Source: an uncultured Acidobacteriota bacterium (GTDB lineage: Bacteria > Acidobacteriota > Vicinamibacteria > Vicinamibacterales > CAVVIG01). From it: DNA of 64,000 nt. Shown in pieces: positions 4,054 to 60,217 of this stretch. Where the stretch lies: the NCBI GenBank assembly GCA_963794705.1, contig CAWCFI010000003.1:859187-923186 (forward strand). Direction: 5' to 3'. The notes under the pieces are model-generated. The model did not search any database. It worked only from the letters and a program-made list of their open reading frames with translations, and was not told where the DNA came from. A program made the translations under genes and the position numbers. The first letter of the stretch is position 1. Each line of letters opens with the position of its first letter.

Positions 4054-4075
4054 GTAATCAGTATAGCCTTCCCCC
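4054..4075. promoter_or_regulatory. 22-bp divergent spacer with overlapping -10 boxes (leaderless-type) for sppA and the ADOP permease
   Basis: On minus, TATACT (4065-4060) lies 6 nt before ATG 4053. On plus, TATAGC (4062-4067) lies 8 nt before ATG 4076. There is no room for an SD. Confidence 0.4.
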
Positions 4076-10403: not shown

Positions 10404-10437
10404 TCGGTGGATGCAGAACGAATTATAGTTTTGGTCT
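10404..10437. promoter_or_regulatory. divergent spacer with overlapping -10 boxes (coiled-coil/PilZ gene and PEGA gene)
   Basis: The core is aATTATAGTt. On plus, TATAGT (10424-10429) lies 8 nt before GTG 10438. On minus, TATAAT (10427-10422) lies 18 nt before ATG 10403. Confidence 0.4.
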
Positions 10438-11535
10438 GTGCCCGTCAACGACGACAACTTGCCAGAGCACGACCGGTTGATTCAGGCGGCCCATGCCGCC
10501 TCGAGCTGGGTGCGCGCCCGCCGGGCCACCTGGGCCAACGAGCCGGAGACGACAGGCCCGGCCTCGCCCGAGGTTGCCGGAGGCGACTTCGAATTCTTGC
10601 CCGCTCCGCCGGCAACGCTCCGCCCGTCCGGCCCCCTTCCATCGCCAATCCCATCCGCCGCGCCCGATCCTCACCGCAGTCCGGACGATCGATTGGATGC
10701 GAAAGCGGGTCGCAGCTCGTTGCCCGAGTTGAGCGAGCGCGTGCGCCGCTGGCTTGCGGGCGGGACGATTGGGCTGGCGGTGATCGGGGCGGCGTTTGCC
10801 GGCGGACGGTATCTCTGGCGATCGTTGCCGGAGCGTCCCGCACGACCGGCCGCGGCGGCCCCCGCGCCGGTCGCGCCGGCGGCTGCGGTCGAACGGAAAC
10901 CGCCGCTTCCTGCCGTCGCGTCGCGCAAAGGCATGGGCTCGCTGAGGGTGAGCTCCACCCCCGCCGGCGCCCAGGTGCTGGTAGACGGCAAGGCCCGCGG
11001 CGCCACCCCCTTGACGCTCGCCGACGTGAGTCCCGGCCGTCACGACGTCGCGCTGCGAAGCGACGCCGGCACGGTCACCCGGACCGTCACCGTTTCGGCG
11101 AATGCGACCGTCGACATCGACGAGGCGATTTTCTCCGGCTTCGTCACCGTCTACTCGCCCTTTGAGGTGACCGTCAGCGAGAACGGCAAAGTGCTCAGGG
11201 CCGACGACCGCCACCAGATCATGCTGCCGGCAGGCGGGCACGAACTCAGACTGGTCAACCGCACGCTCGGATTTGATGCGGTCCGCCAGGTCGAGGTGAA
11301 ACCGGGCGACGCGACCAACCTGCAGTTGACGCCGGACCCGTCGCCGCTCACGGTGACGGCATCGGACGCCGCGGAGGTCTGGCTCGACGGCACCCGGCTT
11401 GGCGAGACCCCGATGAATGCGACGCCGGTGCCTCTGGGCGCCCACGAAATCGTGGTCAAGCGCGCCGCCGGGGGCGAGCGCCGCTTCAACGTCACCATCG
11501 GCGCGAAGCCCTTCACGCTGAACGTCAACTTCTAG
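10438..11535 (+). CDS. PEGA domain-containing membrane protein
   Basis: Pro-rich N-terminal region, TM segment GGTIGLAVIGAAFAGG, then PEGA-type modules (LRVSSTPAGAQVLVDGKARGATPLTLADVSPGRHDVAL; VWLDGTRLGETPMNATPVPLGAHEIVV). Confidence 0.75.
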   Translation: MPVNDDNLPEHDRLIQAAHAASSWVRARRATWANEPETTGPASPEVAGGDFEFLPAPPATLRPSGPLPSPIPSAAPDPHRSPDDRLDAKAGRSSLPELSERVRRWLAGGTIGLAVIGAAFAGGRYLWRSLPERPARPAAAAPAPVAPAAAVERKPPLPAVASRKGMGSLRVSSTPAGAQVLVDGKARGATPLTLADVSPGRHDVALRSDAGTVTRTVTVSANATVDIDEAIFSGFVTVYSPFEVTVSENGKVLRADDRHQIMLPAGGHELRLVNRTLGFDAVRQVEVKPGDATNLQLTPDPSPLTVTASDAAEVWLDGTRLGETPMNATPVPLGAHEIVVKRAAGGERRFNVTIGAKPFTLNVNF

Positions 11536-11558: not shown

Positions 11559-11933
11559 TCACGCGGCGAGCCGTCTCGACGGGTCGCGGATCAGCATCGA
11601 CAACGCCAGGCTCACCAGGCTCACGACCAGGGCGCCGAAGAACGCGGCCCAGAATCCGCTCACGTGAAATCCGAGCCCGAGGGTCGACGACAGCGAGCTG
11701 GTCAGCCACAGCATCAGGCCGTTGATGACCAGCGCAAAGATCCCGAGCGTGACGATGATCAGCGGAAACGTCAGGATTTTGGCGAGCGGCCGCAGCGATG
11801 CATTCAGCATCCCGAACACCAGCGCCACACCGAGCATCGGCAGCGGTCCGCCGTCGAAAGTGACGCCCGGCACGATCCGGGTGGCGACCCAGAGCGCCGC
11901 CGCGTTGACGAGCAGTCGAACCAGAAACGGCAT
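11559..11933 (-). CDS. phage holin family IV / DUF360 (YvlD-like) small membrane protein
   Basis: MPFLVRLLVNAAALWVATRIVPGV..LPMLGVALVFGMLNASLRPLAKILTFPLIIVTLGIFALVINGLML shows the typical 4-TM pattern. The ORF can extend to GTG 11948, but ATG 11933 matches the family N-terminus. Confidence 0.75.
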   Translation of the reverse strand: MPFLVRLLVNAAALWVATRIVPGVTFDGGPLPMLGVALVFGMLNASLRPLAKILTFPLIIVTLGIFALVINGLMLWLTSSLSSTLGLGFHVSGFWAAFFGALVVSLVSLALSMLIRDPSRRLAA

Positions 11934-11951
11934 AGGGGTATTATTCACCTC
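11934..11951. promoter_or_regulatory. 18-bp divergent spacer with overlapping -10 boxes (leaderless-type)
   Basis: On plus, TATTAT (11939-11944) lies 7 nt before ATG 11952. On minus, AATAAT (11945-11940) lies 6 nt before ATG 11933. Confidence 0.4.
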
Positions 11952-12635
11952 ATGGCCTCGAAATCACGCCGTTCCTTTCTCTCGAATCTCGGCGTCGCCG
12001 CTTCGGCCGCCAGCGTCACGCTCGCGGGCGGCGCCACGGTCGCGCACGCCCAGACCGCTGCCGACGGCCGCTGGCAGCCCGCCCGCCACGAGAAGGACGA
12101 CTGGTACGATCAGCTGCCGGGCAAGCACCGGCTGTTCTTCGACACCACCAAGCCGGACGCCCTCGAAGACGCGATCCAGTTCGCGGGAAACTTTTATAGC
12201 GCCAACCGGAGCGATTACGGCCTGGAAAATGGCGACCTCGCCGTGGTCATCTGCATGCGCCACCGGTCGGCGCCGTTCGCGTTCAACGACGCCATCTGGG
12301 CCAAGTACGGCGTGACGCTGGCGAAGCGCGCGGAGTTCGTCGATCCGAAGACGCAGGAGCCGCCGAAGGTCAATTTCTTCACCCCGGTAGCGCCGGCCGC
12401 GCCGGCGCGGGCGCGCGGGCTGGCCAGCTTGATGAAGCTCGGGGTGCAGTTCGCGATCTGCAACCTGTCGACGCACGGCATCGCCAGCATGATTGCCGGG
12501 GCCACCGGCGGCACGGCCGACGCCATCTACAAGGAGCTGGCGGCCAACCTGATCGACCAGGCGCGCCTGGTGCCGGCGGGGATCGTCGCCGTGAATCGCG
12601 CCCAGGAGCGCGGCTTCTCGATCACCGGCTCATGA
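11952..12635 (+). CDS. Tat-exported DsrE/DsrF-like family protein
   Basis: Twin-arginine signal MASKSRRSFLSNLGVAASAASVTLAGG..AHA. The body (KHRLFFD..LAVVICMRHRS..LMKLGVQFAICNLSTHGIA..LVPAGIVAVNRAQERGFSI) resembles DsrE-like proteins. Confidence 0.5.
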   Translation: MASKSRRSFLSNLGVAASAASVTLAGGATVAHAQTAADGRWQPARHEKDDWYDQLPGKHRLFFDTTKPDALEDAIQFAGNFYSANRSDYGLENGDLAVVICMRHRSAPFAFNDAIWAKYGVTLAKRAEFVDPKTQEPPKVNFFTPVAPAAPARARGLASLMKLGVQFAICNLSTHGIASMIAGATGGTADAIYKELAANLIDQARLVPAGIVAVNRAQERGFSITGS

Positions 12636-14982: not shown

Positions 14983-16509
14983 CTACCAGATCCCCACCTG
15001 TCCTTTGACCGAGTCGATCAGCTTCGCTGGATCGAATCCGACTCCCTGCTTGAACACCGTCTCGACCTTGCGGATATCCGAGATGGTCGTCGCGGGGTTG
15101 CCGGCCACGACCACCAGATCCGCCTGCTTCCCGAGCGCAATCGATCCGATCCGCGCCTCGCGGCCGAGGTATTTCGCGCCGTTCAGCGTGCCGATCGAGA
15201 TCGCTTCGAGCGGCGTGAAGCCCTCCTCTACCAGCAGCTCGATCTGCCGCTGATCCGCGTAGCCCGGCACCACGCCGCCGGCGCCGGTCGGGTCGGTGCC
15301 GGCGACCAGCGTGCCGCCGGCTTTGACGAAGGCGCGCTCGAGCCGCATCGCATTCGGGAACAGCGTCGCGTAGACCGATTGGGTGTTCTGCGACGCGCGT
15401 TCGTACGCCCGCTCGAAGCTCGCCTTGAGCTGCGGCGTCAGGACGTCGAGGCCGGGCGGCATCGGTCGCCCACGCGCGAAGGTCTCGAACACCGTCAGCG
15501 TCGACGTCAGCGCGACGTGCTTCTCCACCAGCTTCTTCACGAGCGCCTTGAACGGCTCGCCGTTCTCGTCGAGCGCCGCAATCGTCTGCTGGCCCTTGGC
15601 CTGGCCGGGACAGATGTCGGGCTGCTTGTCGGTCACGAAATCGGTCGCGGCGAAGAAGCCATGTTCGAGGTTGTCGATGCCGAGATCGGCCGCCTCGCCG
15701 TAGGTCACCGAGCACAGGTGGCCGGTGATCTTCATCCCGCGCTTGTGTCCCTCGTCGATCGCGCCCTTGAGCGCGGCGCGCGAGATCTGCATGTAGGCCT
15801 TGAGCGAGGTGGCGCCCTGCTCCTGCCAGTAGGCGACGTGGGTGCGCGCCTGGCTCGCGCTCTCGACGGCATGCATCTGCAGGAACGTGTTCGGACCGTT
15901 GACGTACGGGGCCGTCGGATCGATGGCCGGACCAGGCATCTCACCGGCGGCGATCCGCCGCGCGACATTGATGTCCATGATCCCGTTCACGTTCCCCGCC
16001 GTCCTCATCGTCGTCACACCGCCGGCGAGATAGAGGCGGGAGAAGCTGACGCCGAGCTGACCGTACACGCCGGGACCGGTGGTGTAGTACAGGTGCTCGT
16101 GGAGCATGACCAGTCCGGGGATCAGGCTCTTGCCGGTCAGGTCGACGACCGTGGCGCCGGGCGGGGTCGCGATCCGCGCGGCGTCGCCGATCGCGGCAAT
16201 GTTGCCGTCGCGAATCACGATCGTCTGATCCTCGCGCGGCGGCGCGCCGGTACCGTCGATCACCCGCGCGTGCGTCAACGCGACGATCGGAGCCTGGACT
16301 TTGATATAAGGCGCGAGCGGGTTCGCGGGCGGCTGCTGGGCAACGGCAGGCCTGAAGGCCTGCACTACGAGTACAAGGGCGATGAGCACGACCGGCCCCA
16401 CCTGCCCCACCTGCCCCGCCTGCCCGTCCTGCCCGTCCTGCCCTTCCCGCCTGTCCTGCCCTTCCTGCCCTTCCCGCCCTGTCCCGCCCTTCCCGCCCCG
16501 CTGTGTCAT
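14983..16509 (-). CDS. amidohydrolase family protein (metal-dependent hydrolase, exported)
   Basis: TIM-barrel amidohydrolase motifs (LIPGLVMLHEHL, GVTTMR, KITGHL, GTDP) and a hydrophobic signal VVLIALVLVVQAF. The N-terminal 38 aa are encoded by a G-rich 9-nt repeat, so the true start is uncertain. The ATGA overlaps the upstream gene. Confidence 0.8.
   Translation of the reverse strand: MTQRGGKGGTGREGQEGQDRREGQDGQDGQAGQVGQVGPVVLIALVLVVQAFRPAVAQQPPANPLAPYIKVQAPIVALTHARVIDGTGAPPREDQTIVIRDGNIAAIGDAARIATPPGATVVDLTGKSLIPGLVMLHEHLYYTTGPGVYGQLGVSFSRLYLAGGVTTMRTAGNVNGIMDINVARRIAAGEMPGPAIDPTAPYVNGPNTFLQMHAVESASQARTHVAYWQEQGATSLKAYMQISRAALKGAIDEGHKRGMKITGHLCSVTYGEAADLGIDNLEHGFFAATDFVTDKQPDICPGQAKGQQTIAALDENGEPFKALVKKLVEKHVALTSTLTVFETFARGRPMPPGLDVLTPQLKASFERAYERASQNTQSVYATLFPNAMRLERAFVKAGGTLVAGTDPTGAGGVVPGYADQRQIELLVEEGFTPLEAISIGTLNGAKYLGREARIGSIALGKQADLVVVAGNPATTISDIRKVETVFKQGVGFDPAKLIDSVKGQVGIW
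16392..16500 (-). repeat. about 12 copies of a degenerate 9-nt G-rich unit (RGGGCRGGN) on the sense strand, G-quadruplex-prone
   Basis: The minus strand reads GGGGCGGGAAGGGCGGGACAGGGCGGGAAGGGCAGGAAGGGCAGGACAGGCGGGAAGGGCAGGACGGGCAGGACGGGCAGGCGGGGCAGGTGGGGCAGGTGGGGCC. It translates as GGKGGTGREGQEGQDRREGQDGQDGQAGQVGQVG. Confidence 0.85.
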
Positions 16510-17368: not shown

Positions 17369-17382
17369 TAGAATCTACTCCA
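17369..17382 (+). promoter_or_regulatory. -10 box placed for a leaderless transcript of the ABC transporter operon
   Basis: TAGAAT (17369-17374) followed by 8 nt and GTG 17383. No SD. Confidence 0.35.
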
Positions 17383-18942
17383 GTGCTTCGTTCAGTCGCG
17401 CAGGCCGTGAGGCCGGTGGTCGGTGTCGTGTTCGTTGCCGTTCTCGTCGGCCTGGGTCCGGCTAAAGCCGGACACTACGCCTTGGGGATGGGTCCGGCGA
17501 CGACGCTGGCGCAGCCGGGCATCCTGCGCTGGGCCGGCGACCCCGAAGGCGGCGCGCCCTTCGTCGAAGCCGATCCGTCGCATCTCGATCGGGTCACCGG
17601 CTTCGACGTGGAGATCGCGGCGCTCCTCGCTGCCGGCGTCGGCCGCACGCCGCAGTTCCAGAACGTCACCTTCAGGTCGATCGACCAGAGCATTGCCCGC
17701 GGCGACGCCGAGATCGGGATGAGCGGGATCGAGGACACGCCCGCGCGCCGGGCGACGATGGCCGTGACCATCCCGTACTACGAGTTCCGCGAGGTGCTCG
17801 CGGTCCGCGATGCCGACGCGTCGCGCTTCCAGACACTCGCTGACCTCCGCGGCAAGACGGTCGGCACGCTGGAAGCGACGATCGCCTACGACATCCTGCT
17901 GCGCGCCGAGCGCGACTACGGCCTGCGCGTCGTCTCGTACGAAGACGACGTGCATCCGTACAGCGACCTGGTGATCGGGCGCGTCGACGCGGTGCTGCTC
18001 GACAACGTGCTCGCCGAGCGCCGGCACAAGGCGATGCCCGGCTTCACGATTCAGCCGCAGACGGTCGCCACCGGCCACTACGTCGGCGTGCTCTCGGCAG
18101 CCAACGCGCCGCTGCGCGACAGCTTCAACGAGATTCTCCTCGCCGCCATGCGCGACGGCCGCCTCGAGAAGATCCTGCGCCCGTGGTCGGTCTGGAACGA
18201 CGATCAGCCCAAGCTGTACCAGCAGTTGCTCGCCGGTGTGCCGGTCCCGGCCGTGATCGGCTTCGACACGTCGAGCAGCGTCGCCAGCGTCGGCCGCTGG
18301 GAGGCGGCGCGACGCTATCTGCCATCGCTGCTGCGAGCGTCGGTGGTGACCATCGCGCTGTCGTGCCTGTCGATGGCGCTGGCCGTGTCGATCGGCGTGG
18401 TCATCGCGACGGGGCGCGTCTACGGCGGACCGATCCTGCGCACAGCGCTCATCGCCTACGTCGAGCTGATTCGCGGCACGCCGATCCTGCTCCAGCTCTT
18501 CGTGCTCTACTACGGCCTCGCCTCCGCGATTCGGCTGCCGGCGTTCGTGGCGGCGCTGCTGGGCCTGGCGCTGAACTACGCCGCGTACGAGAGCGAGATC
18601 TACCGTTCGGCGCTCGAGGCGATTTCGACCGGCCAGCTCGAGGCCGCGCGCACGCTCGGGCTCAGCGAACGGCAGGTGCTGACGCTGGTGCGGGCGCCCC
18701 AGGCGTTCCGCCTGGCGCTGGCGCCGATGACCAACGACTTCATCGCGCTGCTCAAGGACTCGTCGCTGGTGTCGGTGCTGACCGTGCTCGAGCTGACCAA
18801 GCAGACGCAGATCTTCGCCACCAACCTCGGCAGCTGGGTCATTCCCGGCACTTTGTGCGCCGCCCTGTATCTCGCGATGTCGCTGCCGCTGGCCGCGCTC
18901 GCCCGACGTATGGAGCGGCAGTGGAGGGTGACGCCGCAATGA
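17383..18942 (+). CDS. amino-acid ABC transporter, fused periplasmic substrate-binding (family 3) and permease protein
   Basis: SBP_bac_3-like N-terminal half (GGAPFVEAD..GFDVEIAALLA) and a His/Glu/Gln/Arg-type permease C-terminal half with EAA loop (LEAARTLGLSERQVLTLVRAPQAFRLALAPMTN). Confidence 0.85.
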   Translation: MLRSVAQAVRPVVGVVFVAVLVGLGPAKAGHYALGMGPATTLAQPGILRWAGDPEGGAPFVEADPSHLDRVTGFDVEIAALLAAGVGRTPQFQNVTFRSIDQSIARGDAEIGMSGIEDTPARRATMAVTIPYYEFREVLAVRDADASRFQTLADLRGKTVGTLEATIAYDILLRAERDYGLRVVSYEDDVHPYSDLVIGRVDAVLLDNVLAERRHKAMPGFTIQPQTVATGHYVGVLSAANAPLRDSFNEILLAAMRDGRLEKILRPWSVWNDDQPKLYQQLLAGVPVPAVIGFDTSSSVASVGRWEAARRYLPSLLRASVVTIALSCLSMALAVSIGVVIATGRVYGGPILRTALIAYVELIRGTPILLQLFVLYYGLASAIRLPAFVAALLGLALNYAAYESEIYRSALEAISTGQLEAARTLGLSERQVLTLVRAPQAFRLALAPMTNDFIALLKDSSLVSVLTVLELTKQTQIFATNLGSWVIPGTLCAALYLAMSLPLAALARRMERQWRVTPQ

Positions 18943-19659: not shown

Positions 19660-20934
19660 TCAGCGTTGTGCGTTGGTCTTGCCGTTGAGGGCCGTGAGCT
19701 GCTCCCTGATCTTCGTCGCTCGCTTGCGCTCCTTCCGATCCGACATCCGGCTCGGGGCGGCCGCATAGAACGCGTTGATGTTCTGACGAAGCGCGTCCGG
19801 AACCGCGGCCGCGTCGTGTCGAGTGAGCCGTCCGAGCAACTCGGCGTAGGTCTCGTCCGCCAGCGAGTATTCGCCGTGGGCGCTGGGCTTGCCGGTGTCG
19901 AAGTCGGTGTTGGGCAGATCGAGCCGTCCGCGTCCGAGTGCGTCGAGCGCCGACCGGAACCGTTCCCTGGTGGTTTTGAAGCTCTCGAGAAAGAGCGCCT
20001 CGGCCTCTTTGGTCGGCGCCTTGAATTGCAGCGGCTTGAGCGGGCCGACCTTCGGCAGCAGCCGGTAGAGGAACGCCAGGAAGCGCGCCAGCAGACCCGG
20101 TTTCTCGTAGTCGGTCCCGTAGGCCTTGTCGTATTCCTGGGGCGACAGGTTGAAGATGAACTTCTCCTCGGCCGCGCCGGGAATGAGCCGCTGGATTTCC
20201 TCACGCTTGTCACGCCAGGCGATCCGCGTGATCTCGGGGATGGTCTGGCTGACGGCATGGCGGTACGAACCGATGGCCAGGTCCTCGCTCATGAACACGT
20301 CCTTCATTTCGAGCCCGTAGGTCGCGAGGAAGGCGCGTTCGAGCACCGGCTTCGCCACCTGGAATCCGACGAAGCTCTGGTACATGTCAGAGACGTAGCC
20401 GCCACCTGCCGCCTGCACGACGTCGAACGAGAACTCCACGAGCACGTGCGTCGCCGGAGAGTCGGCATAAGTGACCGAGTCGCCGTGCTCGGCGCGAAGC
20501 TTGGGATACATCAACGCGACCGCCCGATTGACGCCGTCCGGATGGCCGACGTTGTCCGCCGCGTAGTGCGCCAGCGCGCCGAGCGCAAACGCGTACTCGT
20601 TGACGTCGCGCGACTCGTGGATCAGCGACTGGACGAACTCCCCGGTGCGGACGTAGTGCACGAGGTTGCTGAAGAAGTGGCTGCCAAACGGGTAGTAGCC
20701 CAGATCCTGGATGACCGCCCCGCCGTAGGCGTAGGCGCGTGCCTTCGTTACCTCGTCTCTGCTCGCTCGCGGATAGCGGCGGGCAAGCAATGGGCGCAGG
20801 CTCGTTTCCCAGAGCGCATCGATGTTGGCCTCGTGCGCCAGCACCGAGTATGCGCGCGCCTCCCGCGTCGCGCACACCACGAACGCGAGGAGCAGCCACA
20901 CGGCCCACCACTTCCTCGTACTTCGTACTTCCAC
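19660..20934 (-). CDS. zinc-dependent phospholipase C family protein (exported)
   Basis: AYSVLAHEANIDALW..GGAVIQDLGYYPFGSHFFSNLVHYVRTGEF..GALAHYAADNVGHP. The start is taken at GTG 20934 (VEVRSTRKWWAVWLLLAFVVCA signal); the ORF extends to 20967. Confidence 0.7.
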   Translation of the reverse strand: MEVRSTRKWWAVWLLLAFVVCATREARAYSVLAHEANIDALWETSLRPLLARRYPRASRDEVTKARAYAYGGAVIQDLGYYPFGSHFFSNLVHYVRTGEFVQSLIHESRDVNEYAFALGALAHYAADNVGHPDGVNRAVALMYPKLRAEHGDSVTYADSPATHVLVEFSFDVVQAAGGGYVSDMYQSFVGFQVAKPVLERAFLATYGLEMKDVFMSEDLAIGSYRHAVSQTIPEITRIAWRDKREEIQRLIPGAAEEKFIFNLSPQEYDKAYGTDYEKPGLLARFLAFLYRLLPKVGPLKPLQFKAPTKEAEALFLESFKTTRERFRSALDALGRGRLDLPNTDFDTGKPSAHGEYSLADETYAELLGRLTRHDAAAVPDALRQNINAFYAAAPSRMSDRKERKRATKIREQLTALNGKTNAQR

Positions 20935-20945
20935 CTTCGTACTTC
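20911..20945. repeat. five-unit heptamer array (GTACTTC type) at the M15 peptidase / phospholipase C junction
   Basis: CTTCCTC GTACTTC GTACTTC CACCTTC GTACTTC. The reverse complement GAAGTAC is the same word as in the 14874 array. Confidence 0.7.
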
Positions 20946-24810: not shown

Positions 24811-25580
24811 TCTTTCGGAAAGCGGTGCCCGACAAAGGCATCGTAGGCCCAGCCGCCCACCACGCCGCCAACGCACGGCCCGACGATCGGCACCCACCAC
24901 CACGCGTTGCCGGCGCGAAACACCTCTCCGCCCCAGCCGGCGACGAACGTGAACAACCGCGGGCCGAAATCGCGCGCCGGATTGATGGCGTAGCCCGCGT
25001 TGAAACCGAATGTCGCGCCAATCAACACCACCAGCAGGCCGACCACGACCGGAGCGAGCCCCGCCGGTGCGGGCGAGTTGCGGCTGTCGGTGATTCCGAA
25101 GATGCCCGCGACCAACAGTGCCGTCCCGACCACCTGATCGATGAAACCGCCAGGAAAAGTGCTGAGGAAAGGCTGCGGATAGGTCGCCCAGATGCCGGCC
25201 GTCCCCTGCGCGCCGAGCACCTGCCGCACGCCGCCGTCGAACGCGTCGATCGCTTCGTGATACGTCAGGAACACCACCGCCGACGCGACGAACGCGCCCG
25301 CGATCTGCGCGACGGTATACGGCAGCACCTTGCCCCACGGCAGCTTGCGGTGCACGGCGAGCGCCAGCGTGACCGCCGGGTTCAGGTGCGCGCCGGTCAC
25401 TCCTGCCGATACGTAGCATCCCATCGTCACCGCAAGGCCCCAGGCGATATTGATCGACAGGGTATCGCCGGCCGTGTGCTTGCTGAGCACCACCTGCGCA
25501 ACCACGCCGACGCCGAAGACGATCAGGATGAACGTGCCGAAGAACTCGGCCAGCACTTCGCGCAAGAGTCCTTTTTGCAT
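24807..25580 (-). CDS. glpF: aquaglyceroporin (MIP family glycerol uptake facilitator)
   Basis: Two NPA motifs (HLNPAVTLA; AINPARDFGPR) and six TM segments. Start at MQKGLLREVLAEFFGTF (ATG 25580); the ORF extends to 25631. Confidence 0.9.
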   Translation of the reverse strand: MQKGLLREVLAEFFGTFILIVFGVGVVAQVVLSKHTAGDTLSINIAWGLAVTMGCYVSAGVTGAHLNPAVTLALAVHRKLPWGKVLPYTVAQIAGAFVASAVVFLTYHEAIDAFDGGVRQVLGAQGTAGIWATYPQPFLSTFPGGFIDQVVGTALLVAGIFGITDSRNSPAPAGLAPVVVGLLVVLIGATFGFNAGYAINPARDFGPRLFTFVAGWGGEVFRAGNAWWWVPIVGPCVGGVVGGWAYDAFVGHRFPKD

Positions 25581-25604
25581 GGGCGCATTGTATAGTGAGC
25601 GGCC
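25581..25604. promoter_or_regulatory. 24-bp divergent glpF/glpK spacer with overlapping -10 boxes (leaderless-type)
   Basis: The spacer is gggcgcATTGTATAGTgagcggcc. On plus, TATAGT (25591-25596) lies 8 nt before ATG 25605. On minus, TACAAT (25592-25587) lies 6 nt before ATG 25580. Confidence 0.45.
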
Positions 25605-27104
25605 ATGCCGTACATCCTCGCGCTCGATCAAGGAACCACCAGCTCACGGGCGATTGTCTTCGACCATGACGGCGCGATCCGCGCGGTCGCGCAGAAGGAA
25701 TTCACCCAGATTTTTCCGTCCACCGGCTGGGTCGAGCACGACCCCGGCGAGATCTGGGCCTCCCAGATCGGTGTCGCCGTCGAAGCGCTCGGGCGCGCCC
25801 AGGTGCGGCCGAAGGAACTGGCGGCGATCGGCATCACCAACCAGCGCGAGACGACCATCGTCTGGGATCGCGAGACGGGCGATCCGGTCTACAACGCGAT
25901 CGTCTGGCAGGACCGCCGCACCGCCGACTACTGCCAGGGTCTCAAGGCGCAGGGCGCCGGCGAGACGATTCAGGCGAAGACCGGCCTGCTCATCGACGCC
26001 TATTTTTCGGCGAGCAAGATCCGCTGGATTCTCGACAACGTGGCGGGCGCCAGGGCGCGTGCCGACGCCGGCAAGCTCGCATTCGGCACCGTCGACTCGT
26101 GGCTGGTGTGGAAACTGACAGGGGGCGCCCGTCACATCACCGACGTGAGCAACGCGTCGCGGACGATGCTGTTCAACATCCACACGCTGCAGTGGGACGA
26201 CGAGCTGTTGCAGCTGTTCGGCGTGCCGGCGAGCATGCTGCCCGAGGTGCGCTCGTCGAGCGAAGTCTACGGCAACGTGTCGGACGTCGCTGGGCATCGA
26301 GAGCGTGCCGATCGCGGGTATCGCAGGCGATCAACAGGCCGCGCTCTTCGGCCAGATGTGCCGCCAGCCGGGCATGTCGAAGAACACGTACGGCACGGGC
26401 TGTTTCCTGCTGCAAAACATCGGGACCACGCCGACCCGCTCGACCCAGCAGCTCGTCACCACCGTCGCATGGCAGATCGGCGGCCGGACCGAGTACGCGC
26501 TCGAAGGCAGCGTGTTCATCGGCGGCGCCGTCGTGCAGTGGATTCGCGATGGGCTCGGCCTGATTCGCACCGCTCCCGAGATCGAGCCGCTCGCCGCCAG
26601 CGTTCCCGACAACGGCGGCGATCTACCTGGTGCCGGCGTTCGCCGGTCTCGGCGCACCGCACTGGGATCCGTACGCGCGCGGCACTCTGGTCGGGATCAC
26701 GCGCGGGACCTCGTCCGGGCACATCGCGCGCGCGGCGCTCGAGAGCATCGCCTACCAGGTCGCTGACCTTCTCGACGCGATGCGGCGCGGATGCCGGCGT
26801 CCCGCTCAAGGAGCTGCGCGTGGACGGCGGCGCCGCCACCAATAACATGCTGATGCAGTTCCAGGCCGATCTGCTCGGCGTTCCGGTGGTGCGCCCCGCG
26901 GTCACCGAAACCACGGCGCTCGGCGCCGCGTATCTGGCGGGGATCGCGGTCGGCTACTGGAAATCGGCCGACGACGTCAGCGGTCAGTGGAAGGTGGATC
27001 GCCGGTTCGAACCGGCGATGCCGCGGGCCGCGGCGAACGCGCTGCGTCAACGATGGACACAGGCGCTGGAACGCTCCAAAGGATGGGAAGTCAGACAGCC
27101 GTGA
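25605..27104 (+). pseudogene. glpK: glycerol kinase; three +1 frameshifts as sequenced
   Basis: MPYILALDQGTTSSRAIVFD..ITNQRETTIVWD.. joins [23 protein letters not shown] (ORF 26305), then [21 protein letters not shown] (ORF 26630), then [30 protein letters not shown] (back in the first frame). Shifts are near 26287, 26620 and 26789. Confidence 0.9.
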
Positions 27105-28045
27105 GCGTCCCTCGCGCCAGCATGCCGCTCCAGGTCGCCGCCGCGATGCTCACGCTGATCGGTCCGATGACGCGCGGGCAACCCGCTGGCAGCCTGGCGC
27201 AACTCGAAGTCGTCGTCAGCGACAAGCGCGGCCAGCCTGTGCTGGGACTGCAGAGGGACGATTTCGACATAAAGGAAGACGGCCGTAGCGTCGCGCCGGA
27301 CGCCGCAACGATGGTCGACGCAGACGAGGATCCCGGCCGGGGCGAGGGCCGCTTCGTCATTCTGGTGCTGGATGATGTCAGCGAGCTGGCGGCGAAGGAT
27401 CCACGCATGACGCCGAGCGTTCAGCGCGTCGCAAGGGCGTTCGTCGACAAGATCAGCAGCTCGAACGCCGTGACGGTGCTGCGCTTGAGCCGCAACGCGA
27501 CTGCCGCGCCGATGACGCATGACGAGGCGCTCATGGCGCTCGCCGCGCCAAAACGGGTCGGCGAAGGTCTTGGACCCGCGCCACTCTTTCGCCACGCCAT
27601 TCAGACGGTTGCGACCATTGCCCGGCAAGTCGCGTCCGCACCGCATCGATGGAAACCTGTGGTCTTGATTGGCGCCGCTGACTACCTCGAGCGCCAGAAC
27701 ACCGATCCGATGTCGCGTGATTGGTTCGGCGCGGCGGAGGCCGCCGCCAGGGCGCATGTCATCACCTACGTGATCGATCCGACCGACCTTGCCCGCACGA
27801 TGCTCCGGCCGGAACCGCGAGTCTCCGGTTCGTTCGGGCTCGCGGCCGAAACGGGAGGCTACGTCTTCGCTGGCGCCAGCGCGGCGGGTGCCGCGGTCGA
27901 ACAGGTCTGGAGCGAGGCGGGCCATTACTATCACCTGGAGTACAAGCCACTGCTCACAGGAAAAGCGCCGCATCGGATCGACGTCCGCGTCAAACGCGCT
28001 GGCGTCAGCGCGCGAAGCAGACAGTCACGATGGGAACCGAGTTAG
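27101..28045 (+). CDS. VWFA-related acidobacterial-domain protein
   Basis: LEVVVSDKRGQPVLGLQRDDFDIKEDGRSV..VLDDVS.. and a C-terminal YHLEYKP..HRIDVRVKRAGVSARSRQ, typical of this family. Start is GTG 27101 (overlapping the glpK stop) or ATG 27122. Confidence 0.7.
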   Translation: MSVPRASMPLQVAAAMLTLIGPMTRGQPAGSLAQLEVVVSDKRGQPVLGLQRDDFDIKEDGRSVAPDAATMVDADEDPGRGEGRFVILVLDDVSELAAKDPRMTPSVQRVARAFVDKISSSNAVTVLRLSRNATAAPMTHDEALMALAAPKRVGEGLGPAPLFRHAIQTVATIARQVASAPHRWKPVVLIGAADYLERQNTDPMSRDWFGAAEAAARAHVITYVIDPTDLARTMLRPEPRVSGSFGLAAETGGYVFAGASAAGAAVEQVWSEAGHYYHLEYKPLLTGKAPHRIDVRVKRAGVSARSRQSRWEPS

Positions 28046-39905: not shown

Positions 39906-39919
39906 TATCATCGCCGGCA
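39906..39919 (+). promoter_or_regulatory. -10 box placed for a leaderless MFS transcript
   Basis: TATCAT (39906-39911), 8 nt, ATG 39920. No SD. Confidence 0.3.
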
Positions 39920-41203
39920 ATGACCCACGTCACGCTCGACGCCTCCCCGCAACGCCCGGCCGGCCGCTGGTATCGCGACGTCACCCGCACCCAGTGGAAG
40001 GCGTTCGTCGGCTGCTACCTGGGCTGGGTGCTCGACGGCTTCGACTTCACGATCCTCACCTTCCTGCTGGTCGACATCCAGCGCAGCTTCACGGTGGACA
40101 AGGCGCTGGTCGGATCGCTCGGCACGATCACGCTGATCTTCCGCGTCGCCGGCGGCATCGGCGCCGGCACCGCCGCCGATCGCTGGGGCCGCAAAGGCCC
40201 GCTGATGTTCTCGATTCTCTGGTACTCCGCGTTCTCGTTCCTCGGCGGATTCTCGACCTCGTTCCAGATGCTGTTCGCGATCCGGGCGCTGTTCGGCATC
40301 GGGATGGGCGGCGTGTGGGCGGCTGGCATGCCGCTGACGCTCGAGCACTGGCCCGCGCACCTGCGCGGCACCGCGTCGGGGCTGATGCAGAGCGGCTACT
40401 CGATGGGGTTCCTGCTCTCGTCGCTGGTCTTTGAGTTCGTCTACCCACGCGTGAACCACGGCACCGACCTCGGCTGGCGCTGGATGATGTGGATCGGCAT
40501 CCTGCCGGCCTTCCTGGTGTTCTTCATCATGAGGGGCGTCAAGGAGAGCCCGGTCTGGCTCGACCGCCAGGCGCACCTGAAGAAACACCAGCAGACCGAC
40601 TCGCTGTCACTGCTGCGGCTGTTCAAGCCCGATCTGATCTGGACGACGGTGCACACGTCGCTGCTGATGGGCGCCTTCCTCTTCATGTACCACTCGATCA
40701 CGTATTGGTATCCGACCCTGATCACGCAGATGCACCGCCCGACGCTGCCGTACCTCGCGGCGCTGAACGTCGGCGGCATCACCGGCGGCATCGCCTTCGG
40801 ACGGATTTCGGAGGGCGCGCTCGGCCGCCGCGGCGCCGCGACGATCGCGACGATGGTCGGCATCCTCGCCGTCCCGATTTATGTCTTCACGCAAAGCACG
40901 CCGCTGCTGCTGGCAGGCGCCCTGATGATGGGATTCTTCGGCGCCGGAAATTTCGGCGTGGTCCCCGGCTATCTGACCGAGCGCTTCCCCACCGTGGCCC
41001 GCGCGGTGGGCGCCGGCTTCGCCTACCACGTCGGCGCGGGCTTCGGATCGTTTACGCCGACGCTGGTCGGCGTGCTGCAGGATCGCGGCCTGCCGCTGCC
41101 GACGGCGATGGGCGCCTGCATCGCCGCCTCGGGGACGCTCGTAATCATCCTGATATGGCTCGGCCCGGAGACACGAGGGCGCCACTTCAGCGCGGAGAGT
41201 TAA
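39920..41203 (+). CDS. MFS transporter (sugar-acid/sialate symporter-like)
   Basis: 12-TM pattern with MFS motifs (AADRWGRKGPLMFSIL; LFGIGMGGVWAAGMPLTLEHWP). Confidence 0.8.
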   Translation: MTHVTLDASPQRPAGRWYRDVTRTQWKAFVGCYLGWVLDGFDFTILTFLLVDIQRSFTVDKALVGSLGTITLIFRVAGGIGAGTAADRWGRKGPLMFSILWYSAFSFLGGFSTSFQMLFAIRALFGIGMGGVWAAGMPLTLEHWPAHLRGTASGLMQSGYSMGFLLSSLVFEFVYPRVNHGTDLGWRWMMWIGILPAFLVFFIMRGVKESPVWLDRQAHLKKHQQTDSLSLLRLFKPDLIWTTVHTSLLMGAFLFMYHSITYWYPTLITQMHRPTLPYLAALNVGGITGGIAFGRISEGALGRRGAATIATMVGILAVPIYVFTQSTPLLLAGALMMGFFGAGNFGVVPGYLTERFPTVARAVGAGFAYHVGAGFGSFTPTLVGVLQDRGLPLPTAMGACIAASGTLVIILIWLGPETRGRHFSAES

Positions 41204-45364: not shown

Positions 45365-47386
45365 TCACGGTTGAAACCGGACGCTTTGCCACAGCGCCGC
45401 CGCCTCGTAGACGCGGCCGCCGCTGATCGTCCAGCGCACGCGGCGGATGTTGCGGATCGCATCGAGCGGGTTGGCGTCGAGCACCACCAGGTCGGCACGT
45501 TTGCCGCGCTCGATGGTGCCGAGTTCCCCATCCATCTTCATGGCCCGCGCCGACACGATGGTCGCGGCCTGGAGCGCCTCCATCGGCGTCATCCCGGCCT
45601 CGACGTAGAGCTCGATCTCGCGATGGACGCTGTGGCCCGGAATGCCTTCGTCGGTTCCGGCGACGATCGGGACGCCGGCGTCGTGCAGCGCCTTGACGAT
45701 CCGCAGACCACGCTCGAGGCGCGTTCGCGCGGTCGCGGCATCGATTCCGGCCGCGCCGGCATTCGAGAACACCCGGTTGAGCGGCGCCGGAATCTTCAGC
45801 ACGCCCGGTTGAAACGCCGCAATCGGCGTCCCCACTGCGTGACCGAGCAGCTCGTTCCACGATTGCGTCGGATCCAGCACCGTGTGGTGCGCTTTCAGGA
45901 ATGCAATCGTCGCGTTCACGTCGTCGGAGCCCGCCTCGCCGCGAATGCCCAGGTGCGCGATGTGATCCATTCCGGCGGCGGCGGCCTGCTCGATCGTCAT
46001 GCCGGTGGGAATGTGGCCGGTGACGGTCATGCCCAGGCGATGCGCTTCGGCGCAGATCGCCTCGACAATCGGCGGCGTGACCAGGCTATAAATCTTGATC
46101 TGCTGAAAGCCGGCGTCGTGATACTTCGCCACCGCCTGTTTCGCTTCCGCCGGCGTCGCCGCGTAGTACACCCCGAACGCGTTGGGGCCGCCGCCGTCGA
46201 TCAGGCCGGCCGCGAGCATGCGAGGACCGACGGCGCGCCCGGACATGATCGCGTCTCGCAGCGGCACGAGGAACTCGAACTCGTTCCCCATGTCGCGCAC
46301 CGTCGTCACGCCGGCGCCAAGGTAGACCGGCGCCCACTCGACCTGGGTGACGTGGGTGTGCATGTCCCAGAGCCCCGGGACCACGGTCTTGCCGTCCACC
46401 GCAACGGACGGCAGATCCGGCGGAATGGCGACGGACGAGCGCGGCCCGGCGTCGGCAATCCGCCCGTCGCGGACCACGATCACGCCGTTCGCGATCGGCG
46501 GACGGCCGGTGCCGTCGACGATGGTCGCGCCGACCAGGGCATAGCTGCCGCTGTGGAGCGGCGCCACGCGCCGGGTAATCGCTTCGAGATCCGTGATGCG
46601 GTCGCGCGTCCCCCGCTGGACGAACTCGACCAGCGCCGGCTCGAGATCCTCGCGCACCGCTTCGAAGCTCAGCCCGCCGGCGCGGGTGATCGCCGCGGCC
46701 AGGACGTCGTGATCGTCGAGCCACACCGTCTCGCGCCCCCAGACCACGCCGTCGATCGCGTAGCGCTGGAGCCGCACCTCCGTCGATCCGATCCGGATCA
46801 CGTCGGCGCCACGCGCCTCAATCCACACGTCGTTGGTGGGCAATCCCGGCACCGTGTGGATGAGGGGCGGCTGACCATGCCGCTTCCAGTAACGCAGCAG
46901 CAGCATCTGCGCCGCGAACGGCGCGTAGCCGTCGACGGTGTAGAACGGCCCCGGCACCGCGATTCGCGATTCGGTGCCGTCGGCCCTCACGATCGCGTCA
47001 GCACCATCAATCCGGACCTCGGAGTCGACGTTGACGAAGCGGTAGCTCTTGCCGCTGGCTTTGAACGACAGCGGCGTGAAGTCCGGCCTCGTGCGCAGCG
47101 TGGCGGCAAGCTGGACGCGCCCGCCGCGATCGGTGAAGTCGAAGTCCGAAGTCAGCGTCAGCGCGTCACCGTCGGGGACAATCTGGTAACGCTCGTAGCC
47201 GATCGCCTTCTGCACGTAGTGGAGCCGCAGGGTGCCGCGCTCCGTCGGCTGCGGCTGCAGCAGGACGCTCCCTGCGCCGCCTGGAAGAAGTCCGGCCGCG
47301 CCTGCGTTGGTCGGAAGCCGGACCATCGTGGATAGCAACGCCGCCGCGGCGGTCGTGACGAGAATCAGTCGCACGGCGCGCATCAT
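45365..47386 (-). CDS. amidohydrolase family protein with large N-terminal beta-rich domain (exported)
   Basis: C-terminal half shows GLWDMHTHV..GVTTVRDMG..VTGHIP..MDHIAHL..VAGTDEG and KRADLVVLDANPL. Signal MMRAVRLILVTTAAAALL. Confidence 0.8.
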   Translation of the reverse strand: MMRAVRLILVTTAAAALLSTMVRLPTNAGAAGLLPGGAGSVLLQPQPTERGTLRLHYVQKAIGYERYQIVPDGDALTLTSDFDFTDRGGRVQLAATLRTRPDFTPLSFKASGKSYRFVNVDSEVRIDGADAIVRADGTESRIAVPGPFYTVDGYAPFAAQMLLLRYWKRHGQPPLIHTVPGLPTNDVWIEARGADVIRIGSTEVRLQRYAIDGVVWGRETVWLDDHDVLAAAITRAGGLSFEAVREDLEPALVEFVQRGTRDRITDLEAITRRVAPLHSGSYALVGATIVDGTGRPPIANGVIVVRDGRIADAGPRSSVAIPPDLPSVAVDGKTVVPGLWDMHTHVTQVEWAPVYLGAGVTTVRDMGNEFEFLVPLRDAIMSGRAVGPRMLAAGLIDGGGPNAFGVYYAATPAEAKQAVAKYHDAGFQQIKIYSLVTPPIVEAICAEAHRLGMTVTGHIPTGMTIEQAAAAGMDHIAHLGIRGEAGSDDVNATIAFLKAHHTVLDPTQSWNELLGHAVGTPIAAFQPGVLKIPAPLNRVFSNAGAAGIDAATARTRLERGLRIVKALHDAGVPIVAGTDEGIPGHSVHREIELYVEAGMTPMEALQAATIVSARAMKMDGELGTIERGKRADLVVLDANPLDAIRNIRRVRWTISGGRVYEAAALWQSVRFQP

Positions 47387-47394
47387 CGCACACT

Positions 47395-48039
47395 ATGATG
47401 AGCGCCATGCCCTACCCGGTGTCGACGGCCATCGAGCCGCAGTTGGGGGAGCGCAACCGCCTGACCACGGCATTGCGGCTGGTGCTGGCGATTCCGCACC
47501 TGATTCTGGTGGGCGGCGTCGGCGTCGGGTTCGCGGCCAACAGCAGCCGCCGCGATCTGCTCTCGTTCGGGGGTGAGACCGGGCTGCTCGGCAGTATCGC
47601 CTTCCTCCTGGCCATCGTCAGCTGGTTCACCATCGTCATCACGAGCGAGCACTACACGCCGATCCGTCGCTATACGGGCTACTACCTGCGCTGGCGGGTA
47701 CGCGCGTTGGCCTATCTGATGTTGCTGACCGACGTCTACCCGCCGTTCGGAGACGGGCCCTACCCCACCACACTGACGCTCGAAGCGCCGACCGGGCCAC
47801 GCGATCGCGTGAGCGTCGGGCTGAGGCTGATCATCGCCATCCCGCATTTCATCGTGTTGTTCTTCGTGTTGTGCGCCTGGTGGGTGACGACGGTCGTCTC
47901 GTGGTTCGCGATTCTGATTGGCGGACGCTACCCGCCAGCCCTGTACGACTTCGGCGTCGGCGCGCTGCGATGGCTGATCCGGGTGGAAGCGTTCGTGCTC
48001 CTGCTGGTGGACGAGTACCCGCCCTTCGCACTGACCTGA
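47395..48039 (+). CDS. DUF4389 domain-containing membrane protein
   Basis: Duplicated motif LRLVLAIPHLILV / LRLIIAIPHFIVL and C-terminal GRYPPALYDFGVGALRWLIRVEAFVLLLVDEYPPF. Alternative start ATG 47407 is preceded by TATGAT (47394-47399) and 7 nt. Confidence 0.75.
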   Translation: MMSAMPYPVSTAIEPQLGERNRLTTALRLVLAIPHLILVGGVGVGFAANSSRRDLLSFGGETGLLGSIAFLLAIVSWFTIVITSEHYTPIRRYTGYYLRWRVRALAYLMLLTDVYPPFGDGPYPTTLTLEAPTGPRDRVSVGLRLIIAIPHFIVLFFVLCAWWVTTVVSWFAILIGGRYPPALYDFGVGALRWLIRVEAFVLLLVDEYPPFALT

Positions 48040-53744: not shown

Positions 53745-54329
53745 GTGATAATGCCACCCATGCAAATCGAATTGTGGCGCCACATGTTCGTGCTGAGCCT
53801 GCCGATCGCCGAGAAAATCGTTCGGCCAATCCTGGTGTACGCGTTCCTGATTGTCGGGCTCCGACTCGCGGGCAAGCGCGAACTGGCGCAGCTCAACCCG
53901 TTCGATCTGGTCGTGCTGCTCACGCTCTCGAACACCGTCCAGAACGCGATCATCGGCGACGACAACAGCGTGACCGGCGGCCTGATCGGGGCCACCACCC
54001 TGCTGGTCGTCAACTATGTCCTGGTCCGGTTCGTGTCGAGTCACGAATCGCTCGAACGGTTCGTCGAAGGCGATTCCGATATGCTGATCGAAAATGGCCT
54101 CATCAAGCATGACTGCCTGAAGAAGGAAGCGATCACGGTCGCCGAACTGCTGGGCGCGGCGCACAAGCAGGGCTTCGCCTCGCTGGAAGAGATCGATAAC
54201 GCGGTGCTCGAGCCGAGTGGCAGCATCTGCTTCTTCGGCAAAAAGCCCGGGCCGGATACCATGCGGCATGACGAGATCATCCGTCGGCTCGATCAGATGG
54301 CCGCGCAGCTGGCAGCGCTGAAAGCATGA
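53745..54329 (+). CDS. DUF421 (YetF-like) membrane protein
   Basis: ILVYAFLIVGLRLAGKRELAQLNPFDLVVLLTLSNTVQNAI.. Alternative start ATG 53760 (MQIELW) is preceded by GATAAT (53747-53752) and 7 nt. Confidence 0.8.
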   Translation: MIMPPMQIELWRHMFVLSLPIAEKIVRPILVYAFLIVGLRLAGKRELAQLNPFDLVVLLTLSNTVQNAIIGDDNSVTGGLIGATTLLVVNYVLVRFVSSHESLERFVEGDSDMLIENGLIKHDCLKKEAITVAELLGAAHKQGFASLEEIDNAVLEPSGSICFFGKKPGPDTMRHDEIIRRLDQMAAQLAALKA

Positions 54330-55501: not shown

Positions 55502-55547
55502 CTACCGACCAACGACTAACGACCAACGACCAACGACCAATGACTAT
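55499..55547 (+). repeat. seven-unit heptamer array (CGACCAA type) spanning exactly from one gene's stop codon to the next gene's start codon
   Basis: TGACTAC CGACCAA CGACTAA CGACCAA CGACCAA CGACCAA TGACTAT. The TGA of unit 1 is the dmpA-like stop. ATG 55540 is formed at the unit 6/7 junction. Confidence 0.85.
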
Positions 55548-59153: not shown

Positions 59154-59172
59154 AAGTTCGAAGTTACAATTA
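59131..59172 (+). repeat. heptamer array (AGAAGTT type) covering the glgP stop and the promoter of the next gene
   Basis: AGAAGTT AGAAGTG AGAAGTT AGAAGTT CGAAGTT ACAATTA. It contains the glgP TAG (59151-59153) and TACAAT (59165-59170), which lies 6 nt before ATG 59177. Confidence 0.8.
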
Positions 59173-59176
59173 AGGG

Positions 59177-59638
59177 ATGTCACGCAAGGCTGCTGTCGCC
59201 AAGACGCGGTGCGCGCTGTGCGGCGCCAAAGAGGTGTCGGAGCCGCGCGGCGAGGAACGGTACTGCCGCGACTGCTGGGACAAGAAGATCGCGGTCGAAG
59301 AGATCGTCGCGCGCGAGTTCGCCATCAAGCGCTACATCCGCGCCCAGAGCGCGGAGAAGTACCTCATCTACCACTCCACCCAGAAGCGTCCCTGCGGTCA
59401 GCTGATCGTGGTCGACGACGGCTACGACCTGTTCCTGACCCTGATGCTCTATCCGATGTTCGGCTGGGATGAGCCGGCCTACCACCTCGAGGGGGATCCG
59501 GAGGGCCGGCTGTTTTCCGAGATCCTGGTCGACGTGATCGCCGCCGAGGTGATCGAGCCCTGGGGCGGCGGCAAGTGGCATATGGAGATCTTCCGGTCGG
59601 TCGCGCCCGAGCCCGAAGACTGGAACGGGGAGATGTAA
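59177..59638 (+). CDS. hypothetical protein with N-terminal CxxC..CxxC zinc-ribbon
   Basis: MSRKAAVAKTRCALCGAKEVSEPRGEERYCRDCWDKK.. I recognise no family. The start has leaderless-type geometry. Confidence 0.55.
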   Translation: MSRKAAVAKTRCALCGAKEVSEPRGEERYCRDCWDKKIAVEEIVAREFAIKRYIRAQSAEKYLIYHSTQKRPCGQLIVVDDGYDLFLTLMLYPMFGWDEPAYHLEGDPEGRLFSEILVDVIAAEVIEPWGGGKWHMEIFRSVAPEPEDWNGEM

Positions 59639-60172: not shown

Positions 60173-60217
60173 GAACGTAGAACTCAGAACGTAGAACTTG
60201 GAACTTAGAAGTACGGA
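60169..60217 (+). repeat. seven-unit heptamer array (CNTAGAA type) starting at the stop codon
   Basis: GTAGGAA CGTAGAA CTCAGAA CGTAGAA CTTGGAA CTTAGAA GTACGGA. The array runs straight into a GC hairpin. Confidence 0.8.

Follow-up and report, generated by a model that had tools for sequence, protein, structure and literature searches.

A conserved 10-bp element between the divergent glpF and glpK genes of Vicinamibacterales is a predicted bidirectional promoter for two leaderless mRNAs

We analyzed a 64-kb stretch of contig CAWCFI010000003.1 (64,000 nt, hereafter the window) from the genome of an uncultured bacterium of the order Vicinamibacterales (Acidobacteriota). In this window, the genes of the glycerol channel (glpF) and of the glycerol kinase (glpK) diverge from a spacer of only 24 nt, which contains a composite 10-mer with the skeleton AnnnTAnnnT. 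The 10-mer holds a -10-like hexamer in each direction, TATAGT in front of glpK and TACAAT in front of glpF, and it is conserved between divergent glpF and glpK genes of related genomes. From its sequence and its conservation, the 10-mer is probably a pseudo-symmetric bidirectional core promoter of the sigma-70/sigma-A type, one that would give rise to two leaderless mRNAs.

Geometry and conservation of the glpF/glpK spacer

The coordinates of the locus are listed in Table 1. The two hexamers overlap by two base pairs, the TA step at 25591/25592, as verified by script. On this step, T-12 and A-11 of the two hexamers pair reciprocally, so that the key positions of both coincide, as they do in bidirectional promoters. 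An earlier note on this DNA had described the spacer, both ATGs, TATAGT at 8 nt and TACAAT at 6 nt, and every coordinate proved correct to the base. The note had also claimed that there is no room for a Shine-Dalgarno (SD) sequence on either side. Scoring an SD as GGAG, GAGG or AGGA, we found none in the 24-nt spacer on either strand.

The start codons do not lie elsewhere, a possibility that the note had named as one that would overturn its reading. An in-frame TGA (25596-25598) stands 6 nt, or two codons, before the glpK ATG, and thus no glpK start is possible upstream of 25605. The conserved kinase N-terminus YILALDQGTTS comes straight after this ATG. The glpF frame is open upstream to 25643, and the sole other start codon there is a TTG at 25631. 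In 40+ orthologues (L001-L068), the start codon is in register with the ATG at 25580. In many orthologues with long spacers, stop codons, a strong SD and unrelated sequence stand directly before the aligned ATG. Since the orthologous starts are aligned and many of them are preceded by an SD, the ATG at 25580 is the true glpF start. The alternative start at TTG 25631 was rejected, as the orthologue alignments gave it no support.

The comparative set comprised 80 related loci from a scan of one genome per species, nearly all of them from Acidobacteriota of the order Vicinamibacterales. Of the 80 loci, 53 share the divergent arrangement of the window, while in nine more distant ones the two genes ran in the same direction, glpF and then glpK. 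Among the 53 divergent loci, 34 have retained the 10-mer in the form ATTGTA[T/G/A]A[G/C/T]T, and its surroundings varied. Based on base composition, this form is expected about 3e-6 times per position. In alignments of the related loci anchored on the 10-mer, information content was at background immediately on either side, and no wider dyad or direct repeat was found around it. Across the window, the 10-mer is single-copy when up to one mismatch is allowed. An identical or near-identical spacer of 24-25 nt is present in L001, L002, L003, L006, L008, L024 and L025.

The placement of the 10-mer relative to the two genes differed among the loci. It adjoins both ATGs in seven loci and the window, at 6-7 nt from glpF and 8 nt from glpK. 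In 16 loci it adjoins glpK alone, and the glpF leader there measures 17-470 nt; twelve of them have the glpK ATG at a distance of 8 nt, and the other four at 6, 9, 11 and 11 nt. It adjoins glpF alone, at 5-8 nt, in seven loci with a glpK leader of 14-82 nt, and it adjoins neither gene in four loci. The 8-nt spacing to glpK is common to 19 loci (7 in which the 10-mer abuts both genes and 12 in which it abuts glpK only), and a glpF spacing of 5-8 nt is found in 14 orthologous loci.

Whichever gene the 10-mer adjoins, both hexamers are intact in all 34 loci. The plus-strand hexamer reads TAnAnT in every one of them (34/34), including those in which only glpF is adjoined, and TACAAT is retained even where glpF has a leader bearing an SD. 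The ATTG of the 10-mer is not the TG of an extended -10 element and would have no role in a promoter that serves glpK only; its conservation therefore argues for the minus-strand hexamer. In a more distant clade, AGTATAC(AGT) stands in mid-spacer, and several of these loci keep the AnnnTAnnnT skeleton. Judged from these alignments, the two -10-like hexamers are no chance coincidence and form a conserved 10-bp unit. The claim of the earlier note that the spacer is a compact unit of overlapping -10 elements is thereby supported.

The presence of an SD depended on the presence of a leader on the glpF side. Where glpF is leadered, GGAG, GAGG or AGGA was found in 19 of 20 loci, while glpF orthologues that adjoin the 10-mer have no SD inside the possible transcript. 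An SD that accompanies glpF only when there is a leader is the signature that would be expected of leaderless versus leadered expression. Leadered glpK orthologues are mostly without an SD, and thus the glpK side offers no such contrast. Taken together, the intact hexamers, the fixed distance to the ATG and the glpF contrast argue for a promoter and not for an operator. Leaderless-type starts are all ATG, and GTG and TTG are confined to leadered orthologues. Since this ATG/GTG contrast is confined to one distant clade, it has little weight and is not independent evidence. As a separate observation, the glpK leaders of L009, L012, L014 and L029 carry a perfect GC-rich hairpin, GTCCGGCT[C/G]AAGCCGGAC or similar, which begins a few nt past the predicted start site.

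Promoter interpretation and its alternatives

Herein, we describe how the 10-mer may act. Its plus strand would present TATAGT as a -10 element and its minus strand TACAAT, with the palindromic TA step shared between them: T-12/A-11 of one hexamer would be A-11/T-12 of the other. RNA polymerase holoenzyme, with a housekeeping sigma factor, could bind either way round and never both ways simultaneously; in one orientation, it would cover the site required by the other. The holoenzyme would melt the AT-rich core and initiate at the first purine 7-9 nt beyond the hexamer. In the case of glpK, initiation is predicted at the C-A 25604/25605, position 9 after TATAGT. In the case of glpF, it is predicted at the C-A 25581/25580, position 7 after TACAAT. 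In both directions, the first purine is the A of the ATG, and thus both mRNAs would be leaderless or would have a leader of 1-2 nt at most. Translation would then begin by direct ribosome binding at the 5' AUG, with no SD, and one 24-bp segment would co-express the glycerol channel and the kinase.

The distances from TAnnnT to the ATG, 6 nt for glpF and 8 nt for glpK, fit the spacing known from bacterial leaderless genes. In addition, glpF lacks an SD while its leadered orthologues have one, as a leaderless gene is expected to. The earlier note had concluded that RNA polymerase competes for the two directions, and here the claim has to be made conditional. The two orientations would be mutually exclusive, but in E. 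coli bidirectional promoters competition is negligible at basal activity and is measurable only when one direction is strongly activated (PMC12825309).

Several observations weigh against a bidirectional leaderless promoter. A consensus scan of 25300-25900 on both strands detected no -35/-10 promoter, and hence no canonical sigma-70 promoter. The sequence at the -35 positions, which are within the partner gene, has little similarity to TTGACA. A missing -35 is usual in high-GC, leaderless-rich bacteria; with none found, the -10 elements and the comparative data have to carry the promoter call by themselves. The glpK hexamer, 8 nt from its ATG, is at the long end of start-site selection, and the true glpK start could lie 1-2 nt upstream. 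A literature search for transcription start-site maps in Acidobacteria found none. Outside glp and the DUF4389 gene described below, the pooled related loci had no clear excess of double-leaderless pairs over chance, in a low-power screen whose strict open reading frame (ORF) filters were insensitive enough that even L001 failed them. Finally, glpK is frameshifted three times in the window, so that the promoter may drive a broken gene, unless the frameshifts are assembly errors.

Alternatively, the element may be a leaderless promoter in one direction only, most likely that of glpF. In that case, the second hexamer would merely reflect the symmetry of -10 elements, and the promoter of the other gene would lie in the coding region of its neighbor, its mRNA being translated from an SD-less leader. 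Elements of the -10 type are inherently near-symmetric, and the two sides are unequal: glpF has the optimal spacing of 6 nt and a near-consensus TACAAT, while the gap between TATAGT and the glpK ATG is above the optimum. The mostly SD-less leaders of glpK orthologues also suggest that this lineage is apparently able to translate glpK without an SD. However, the identical 8-nt spacing across 19 loci, TAnAnT on the plus strand in all 34 loci, even the glpF-only ones, and the 16 loci in which the 10-mer adjoins glpK alone speak against this alternative. Use in one direction only is thus unlikely. Another possibility is that the 10-mer serves mainly as an operator, bound by a transcription factor that responds to glycerol or by some other factor, with the promoters located elsewhere or only partly defined by the 10-mer. 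ATTGTA is indeed kept exactly, more uniformly than the loose TAnnnT of high-GC genomes, and in the more distant clade the middle of the spacer holds a GTATAC core, which is palindromic. An operator, however, would not need a fixed distance of 8 nt or 6-7 nt to an ATG, and the AnnnTAnnnT skeleton is also present at unrelated gene pairs. Moreover, conservation is only 10 bp wide, the aligned loci have no extended dyad or direct repeat around the 10-mer, and within the window neither a further copy of it at up to one mismatch nor a nearby regulator gene was found; one neighboring gene has no Pfam match, and the other is HbpS-like only. We regard a main role as operator as quite improbable, and binding of a factor over the bidirectional promoter could supplement it without displacing it.

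The possibility of an artefact, in which the hexamers are chance AT-rich sequence or the starts are misplaced, for example with glpF beginning at TTG 25631, has next to no weight. The glpF frame does remain open past this TTG. Nevertheless, the long-spacer orthologues have stops and an SD right before the aligned glpF ATG, the glpK ATG is preceded by its in-frame TGA, and in the GlpF of E. coli the N-terminus that precedes the AEFLGT motif is of similar shortness. Chance is opposed by the shuffle and Fisher tests given below. The artefact was largely refuted by the orthologue alignments, the conservation of the 10-mer, the SD contrast and the shuffle test.

Related arrangements in the window and in other bacteria

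Including glpF/glpK, the window contains four divergent pairs of the leaderless type (Table 1). The earlier note had listed eight recurrences of a TAnnnT-like hexamer that is followed, 6-8 nt later, by a start codon. All eight are present, and all stand before real genes; that at 53747-53762 is GATAAT and not a strict TAnnnT. At 11934-11954, the corrected positions of the two ATGs are 11933 (-) and 11952 (+). Next to the recurrence at 47394-47409, the start codon on the minus strand is probably 47386 and not 47383. Pfam domain matches were found for seven of the eight genes behind the listed recurrences, while the gene at 59177 has a sub-threshold match only and rests on an ORF with a high GC content at third codon positions (GC3). 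The nine starts that the note had listed as SD-led all have GGAG, GGAGG or AGGAG 5-9 nt upstream. The proposed mixed regime of leadered and leaderless-type genes is thus borne out in the window by sequence, and it fits the in-silico estimate for Acidobacteria (PMC3160421).

Table 1. Coordinates of the glpF/glpK unit and of other leaderless-type starts in the window (distances are from the hexamer to the start codon)
Feature	Position	Strand	Details
glpF, aquaglyceroporin, 257 aa	24807..25580	-	ATG at 25580 (CAT 25578-25580); Pfam MIP, E 1.2e-49
glpF/glpK spacer GGGCGCATTGTATAGTGAGCGGCC	25581..25604		24 nt, entire intergenic region; read from sequence
Composite 10-mer ATTGTATAGT	25587..25596		skeleton AnnnTAnnnT; proposed bidirectional core promoter
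Predicted -10 hexamer TACAAT for glpF	25592-25587	-	6 nt, then ATG 25580
Predicted -10 hexamer TATAGT for glpK	25591..25596	+	8 nt, then ATG 25605
glpK, glycerol kinase	25605..27104	+	ATG 25605-25607; Pfam FGGY_N, E 4e-78; FGGY_C, E 4e-15
Second divergent pair, spacer	4054..4075		22 nt; core AGTATAGCCT; ATGs 23 bp apart; no leader room
Peptidase S49 gene, second pair	ATG 4053	-	TATACT, 6 nt
MacB/FtsX permease gene, second pair	ATG 4076	+	TAGCCT, 6 nt
Third divergent pair, spacer	11934..11951		18 nt; core TATTATT; ATGs 19 bp apart
Holin-4_2 family membrane protein, third pair	ATG 11933	-	AATAAT, 6 nt
Twin-arginine signal protein, third pair	ATG 11952	+	TATTAT, 7 nt
Fourth divergent pair	47384..47406		spacer 20 or 23 nt; ATGs 21 or 24 bp apart
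Amidohydrolase, fourth pair	start 47386 or 47383	-	CATAGT or TAGTGT upstream; hexamer ambiguous
DUF4389 gene, fourth pair	ATG 47407	+	TATGAT, 7 nt
PEGA-domain protein, leaderless-type start	10424..10440	+	TATAGT, 8 nt, GTG 10438
Solute-binding/permease fusion, candidate leaderless-type start	17369..17385	+	TAGAAT, 8 nt, putative GTG 17383
MFS transporter, leaderless-type start	39906..39922	+	TATCAT, 8 nt, ATG 39920
Leaderless-type start	59165..59179	+	TACAAT, 6 nt, ATG 59177

A second set covered 80 metagenomic contigs with orthologues of the DUF4389 gene. In several clades, TATGAT, TATAGT or TATCAT stands 6-8 nt before the ATG, while distant orthologues have AGGAG instead of the hexamer. The 20-nt form of the fourth pair is kept in contigs L083, L084, L086 and L095, and the sequence of contig L081 is identical there. 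An independent gene call on L081 places the DUF4389 start at the same ATG as 47407, and it gives the MFS transporter the same start (39920) and the same 427-aa product. The protein encoded by the plus-strand gene of the third pair (11952-12635), which starts 18 nt away from the holin-like gene on the other strand, has the twin-arginine signal MASKSRRSFLSNLG...; the gene has a longer alternative upstream start in the same frame and was hence overlooked by GC3-based ORF picking.

The arrangement was compared with what shuffled sequence contains. The pattern CAT/CAC-N5-9-AnnnTAnnnT-N5-9-ATG/GTG has eight matches at five sites in the window, while 200 Markov-shuffled windows had a mean of 0.43 and none of them (0/200) attained eight. 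In a further test, TAnnnT hexamers ending 5-9 nt before 5'-proximal ATG/GTG codons were compared with those before internal codons. In the window, 8 of 118 candidate starts had such a TAnnnT, compared with 6 of 686 internal codons (Fisher p = 2.4e-4). After masking of the glp starts, the counts for the pooled related loci were 22 of 818 starts versus 20 of 5027 internal codons. The enrichment over neighboring offsets was only ~2-3 fold, and leaderless genes are thus a minority.

Warman, Grainger and co-workers attributed the frequent bidirectionality of bacterial promoters to the near symmetry of the -10 element (bioRxiv 10.1101/2020.01.31.928960, PMC10268837, PMC12825309). The most frequent distance between divergent start sites is 18 bp, distances of 10 and 23 bp are common as well, and bidirectional pairs were defined as start sites 7-25 bp apart, small deviations being allowed (PMC12825309; bioRxiv 10.1101/2020.01.31.928960). 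By simple arithmetic, a start separation of 23 bp puts -12/-11 of both strands on the same two base pairs. The glpF/glpK unit and the pair at 4053/4076, whose opposite-strand -10 hexamers overlap at key positions, have the arrangement of this 23-bp class, and the pair at 11933/11952 has the geometry of the 18/19-bp class. The predicted start distances (25 bp for glp, and 23, 19 and 21-24 bp for the other pairs) lie within 7-25 bp. Here as there, a short pseudo-symmetric sequence would serve both directions, in orientations that would be mutually exclusive. The published promoters, however, were defined by mapping start sites, in E. coli, Salmonella, actinobacteria and firmicutes, whereas those described here are predictions from sequence. 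In E. coli, the 18-bp class is dominant, and a non-coding or antisense RNA is often among the two products. Here, in contrast, both products would be mRNAs that begin at the start codon, and thus the promoter core would be the whole intergenic region. The discriminator on the glpK side is also 2 nt over the ideal 23-bp geometry.

Start-site maps of Mycobacterium tuberculosis and M. smegmatis (Cortes 2013, Shell 2015) reportedly document the leaderless genes of high-GC bacteria. In a study by Zheng et al. 2011, TANNNT ~12 bp upstream of the start marked leaderless genes, and the leaderless genes of Acidobacteria were predicted in silico at 13.3% (range 9.7-19.4%, 3/3 genomes; PMC3160421). Like these genes, the leaderless-type starts in the window have TAnnnT at 6-8 nt from the ATG, lack both an SD and a recognisable -35, and occur side by side with SD-led genes in one genome. 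The known work differs in that it consists of statistics on three other Acidobacteria, or of experiments in Actinobacteria, and those sources describe no leaderless pairs on one -10 core. Our literature searches found no explicit report of two leaderless protein genes that share one -10 core.

In E. coli and Bacillus subtilis, glpF and glpK form the glpFK operon. As in the operon, glycerol facilitator and glycerol kinase are kept adjacent here and are presumably co-expressed. Unlike in the operon, they are divergent and would share one promoter; the co-directional order was found neither in the window nor in the 53 divergent loci. In the PRM/PR region of phage lambda, two promoters likewise diverge, and the cI mRNA made from one of them is leaderless. 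They are, however, separate promoters governed by operators, with starts ~80 bp apart and -10 elements that do not overlap, and cI alone is leaderless. The architecture described here is not new: it is a clear, conserved example of two known mechanisms, and the combination follows directly from both. Current understanding of transcription or translation initiation is unchanged by it.

The most interesting aspect is evolutionary: a stable 10-bp core is surrounded by leaders that vary among close relatives, and the classical glpFK operon is replaced. Gain or loss of a leader appears to occur even between genomes with a GlpF that is >90% identical. We tentatively suggest, as a possibility and not as the likeliest outcome, that in Vicinamibacterales the 10-bp core AnnnTAnnnT is an evolutionarily stable module, that its flanking leaders, with or without an SD, are repeatedly gained and lost, and that leaderless divergent pairs regularly replace operons. 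If this is true, the lineage would be a natural series for the interconversion of leaderless and SD-led genes and for the choice of orientation by the polymerase. With its four states (both genes leaderless, either one leadered, both leadered), the orthologous series amounts to a natural experiment on the turnover of leaders and SDs around a fixed promoter. In a barely studied soil phylum, an entire intergenic region appears reducible to one shared -10 core for two protein-coding genes. Gene callers and annotators of Acidobacteria should expect SD-less starts and divergent ATGs only 18-25 bp apart.

Frameshifts in glpK, assembly quality and tandem repeats

Relative to L001, L003, L006 and L008, glpK in the window has three 1-nt insertions, at ~26285, 26621 and 26783-26786. 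Approximately 500 nt (~170 codons) are out of frame (26284-26786), after which the frame is restored. The 499-codon ORF of glpK stays open because the alternative frames of this high-GC sequence have no stops. The rest of the 2.3-kb glpF-glpK alignment is gap-free. Thus, glpK is either a disrupted gene or the site of clustered assembly errors.

In exact look-ups of the window's proteins, GlpF (as 257 or 274 aa) and GlpK had no entry, while the DUF4389 protein led to contig L081. This metagenome contig of a relative (ENA ERZ25039606 contig_4882, 787 kb) matches positions 37415-57977 of the window at 96.3% identity, and the 20.6-kb alignment contains 143 gap openings. Genes on L081 are called in fragments, such as the FtsX permease, which is called as 556 + 250 aa versus one 819-codon ORF in the window. 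Indel errors are abundant in the L081 assembly, in the window assembly, or in both.

Downstream of glpK, a segment of ~950 bp (27105-28045) separates the gene from a large BNR/sortilin-like gene. The segment is absent from the closest relative, L001, in which the two genes are ~15 bp apart. It contains a 352-aa ORF (26987-28045) with no Pfam match.

Intergenic tandem arrays of 7-nt units were found at 59131-59166 (AGAAGTT x5), 60173-60210 (GAACTTA x5.4), 55506-55544 (CGACCAA x5.6) and 20916-20945 (TCGTACT x4.3). The array at 59131-59166 directly adjoins the TACAAT hexamer before ATG 59177. Different heptamer arrays stand upstream of orthologous genes in other metagenomic contigs, and in L094 and L098 they stand upstream of the DUF4389 gene. 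At 9358-9653 lies a tandem repeat with a unit of 63/126 nt (4.6 or 2.3 copies), on the opposite strand within the long GC-rich ORF 7919-10288 (-), and a 9-nt repeat, CCTGCCCTT, is present in ~11 copies at 16401-16501.

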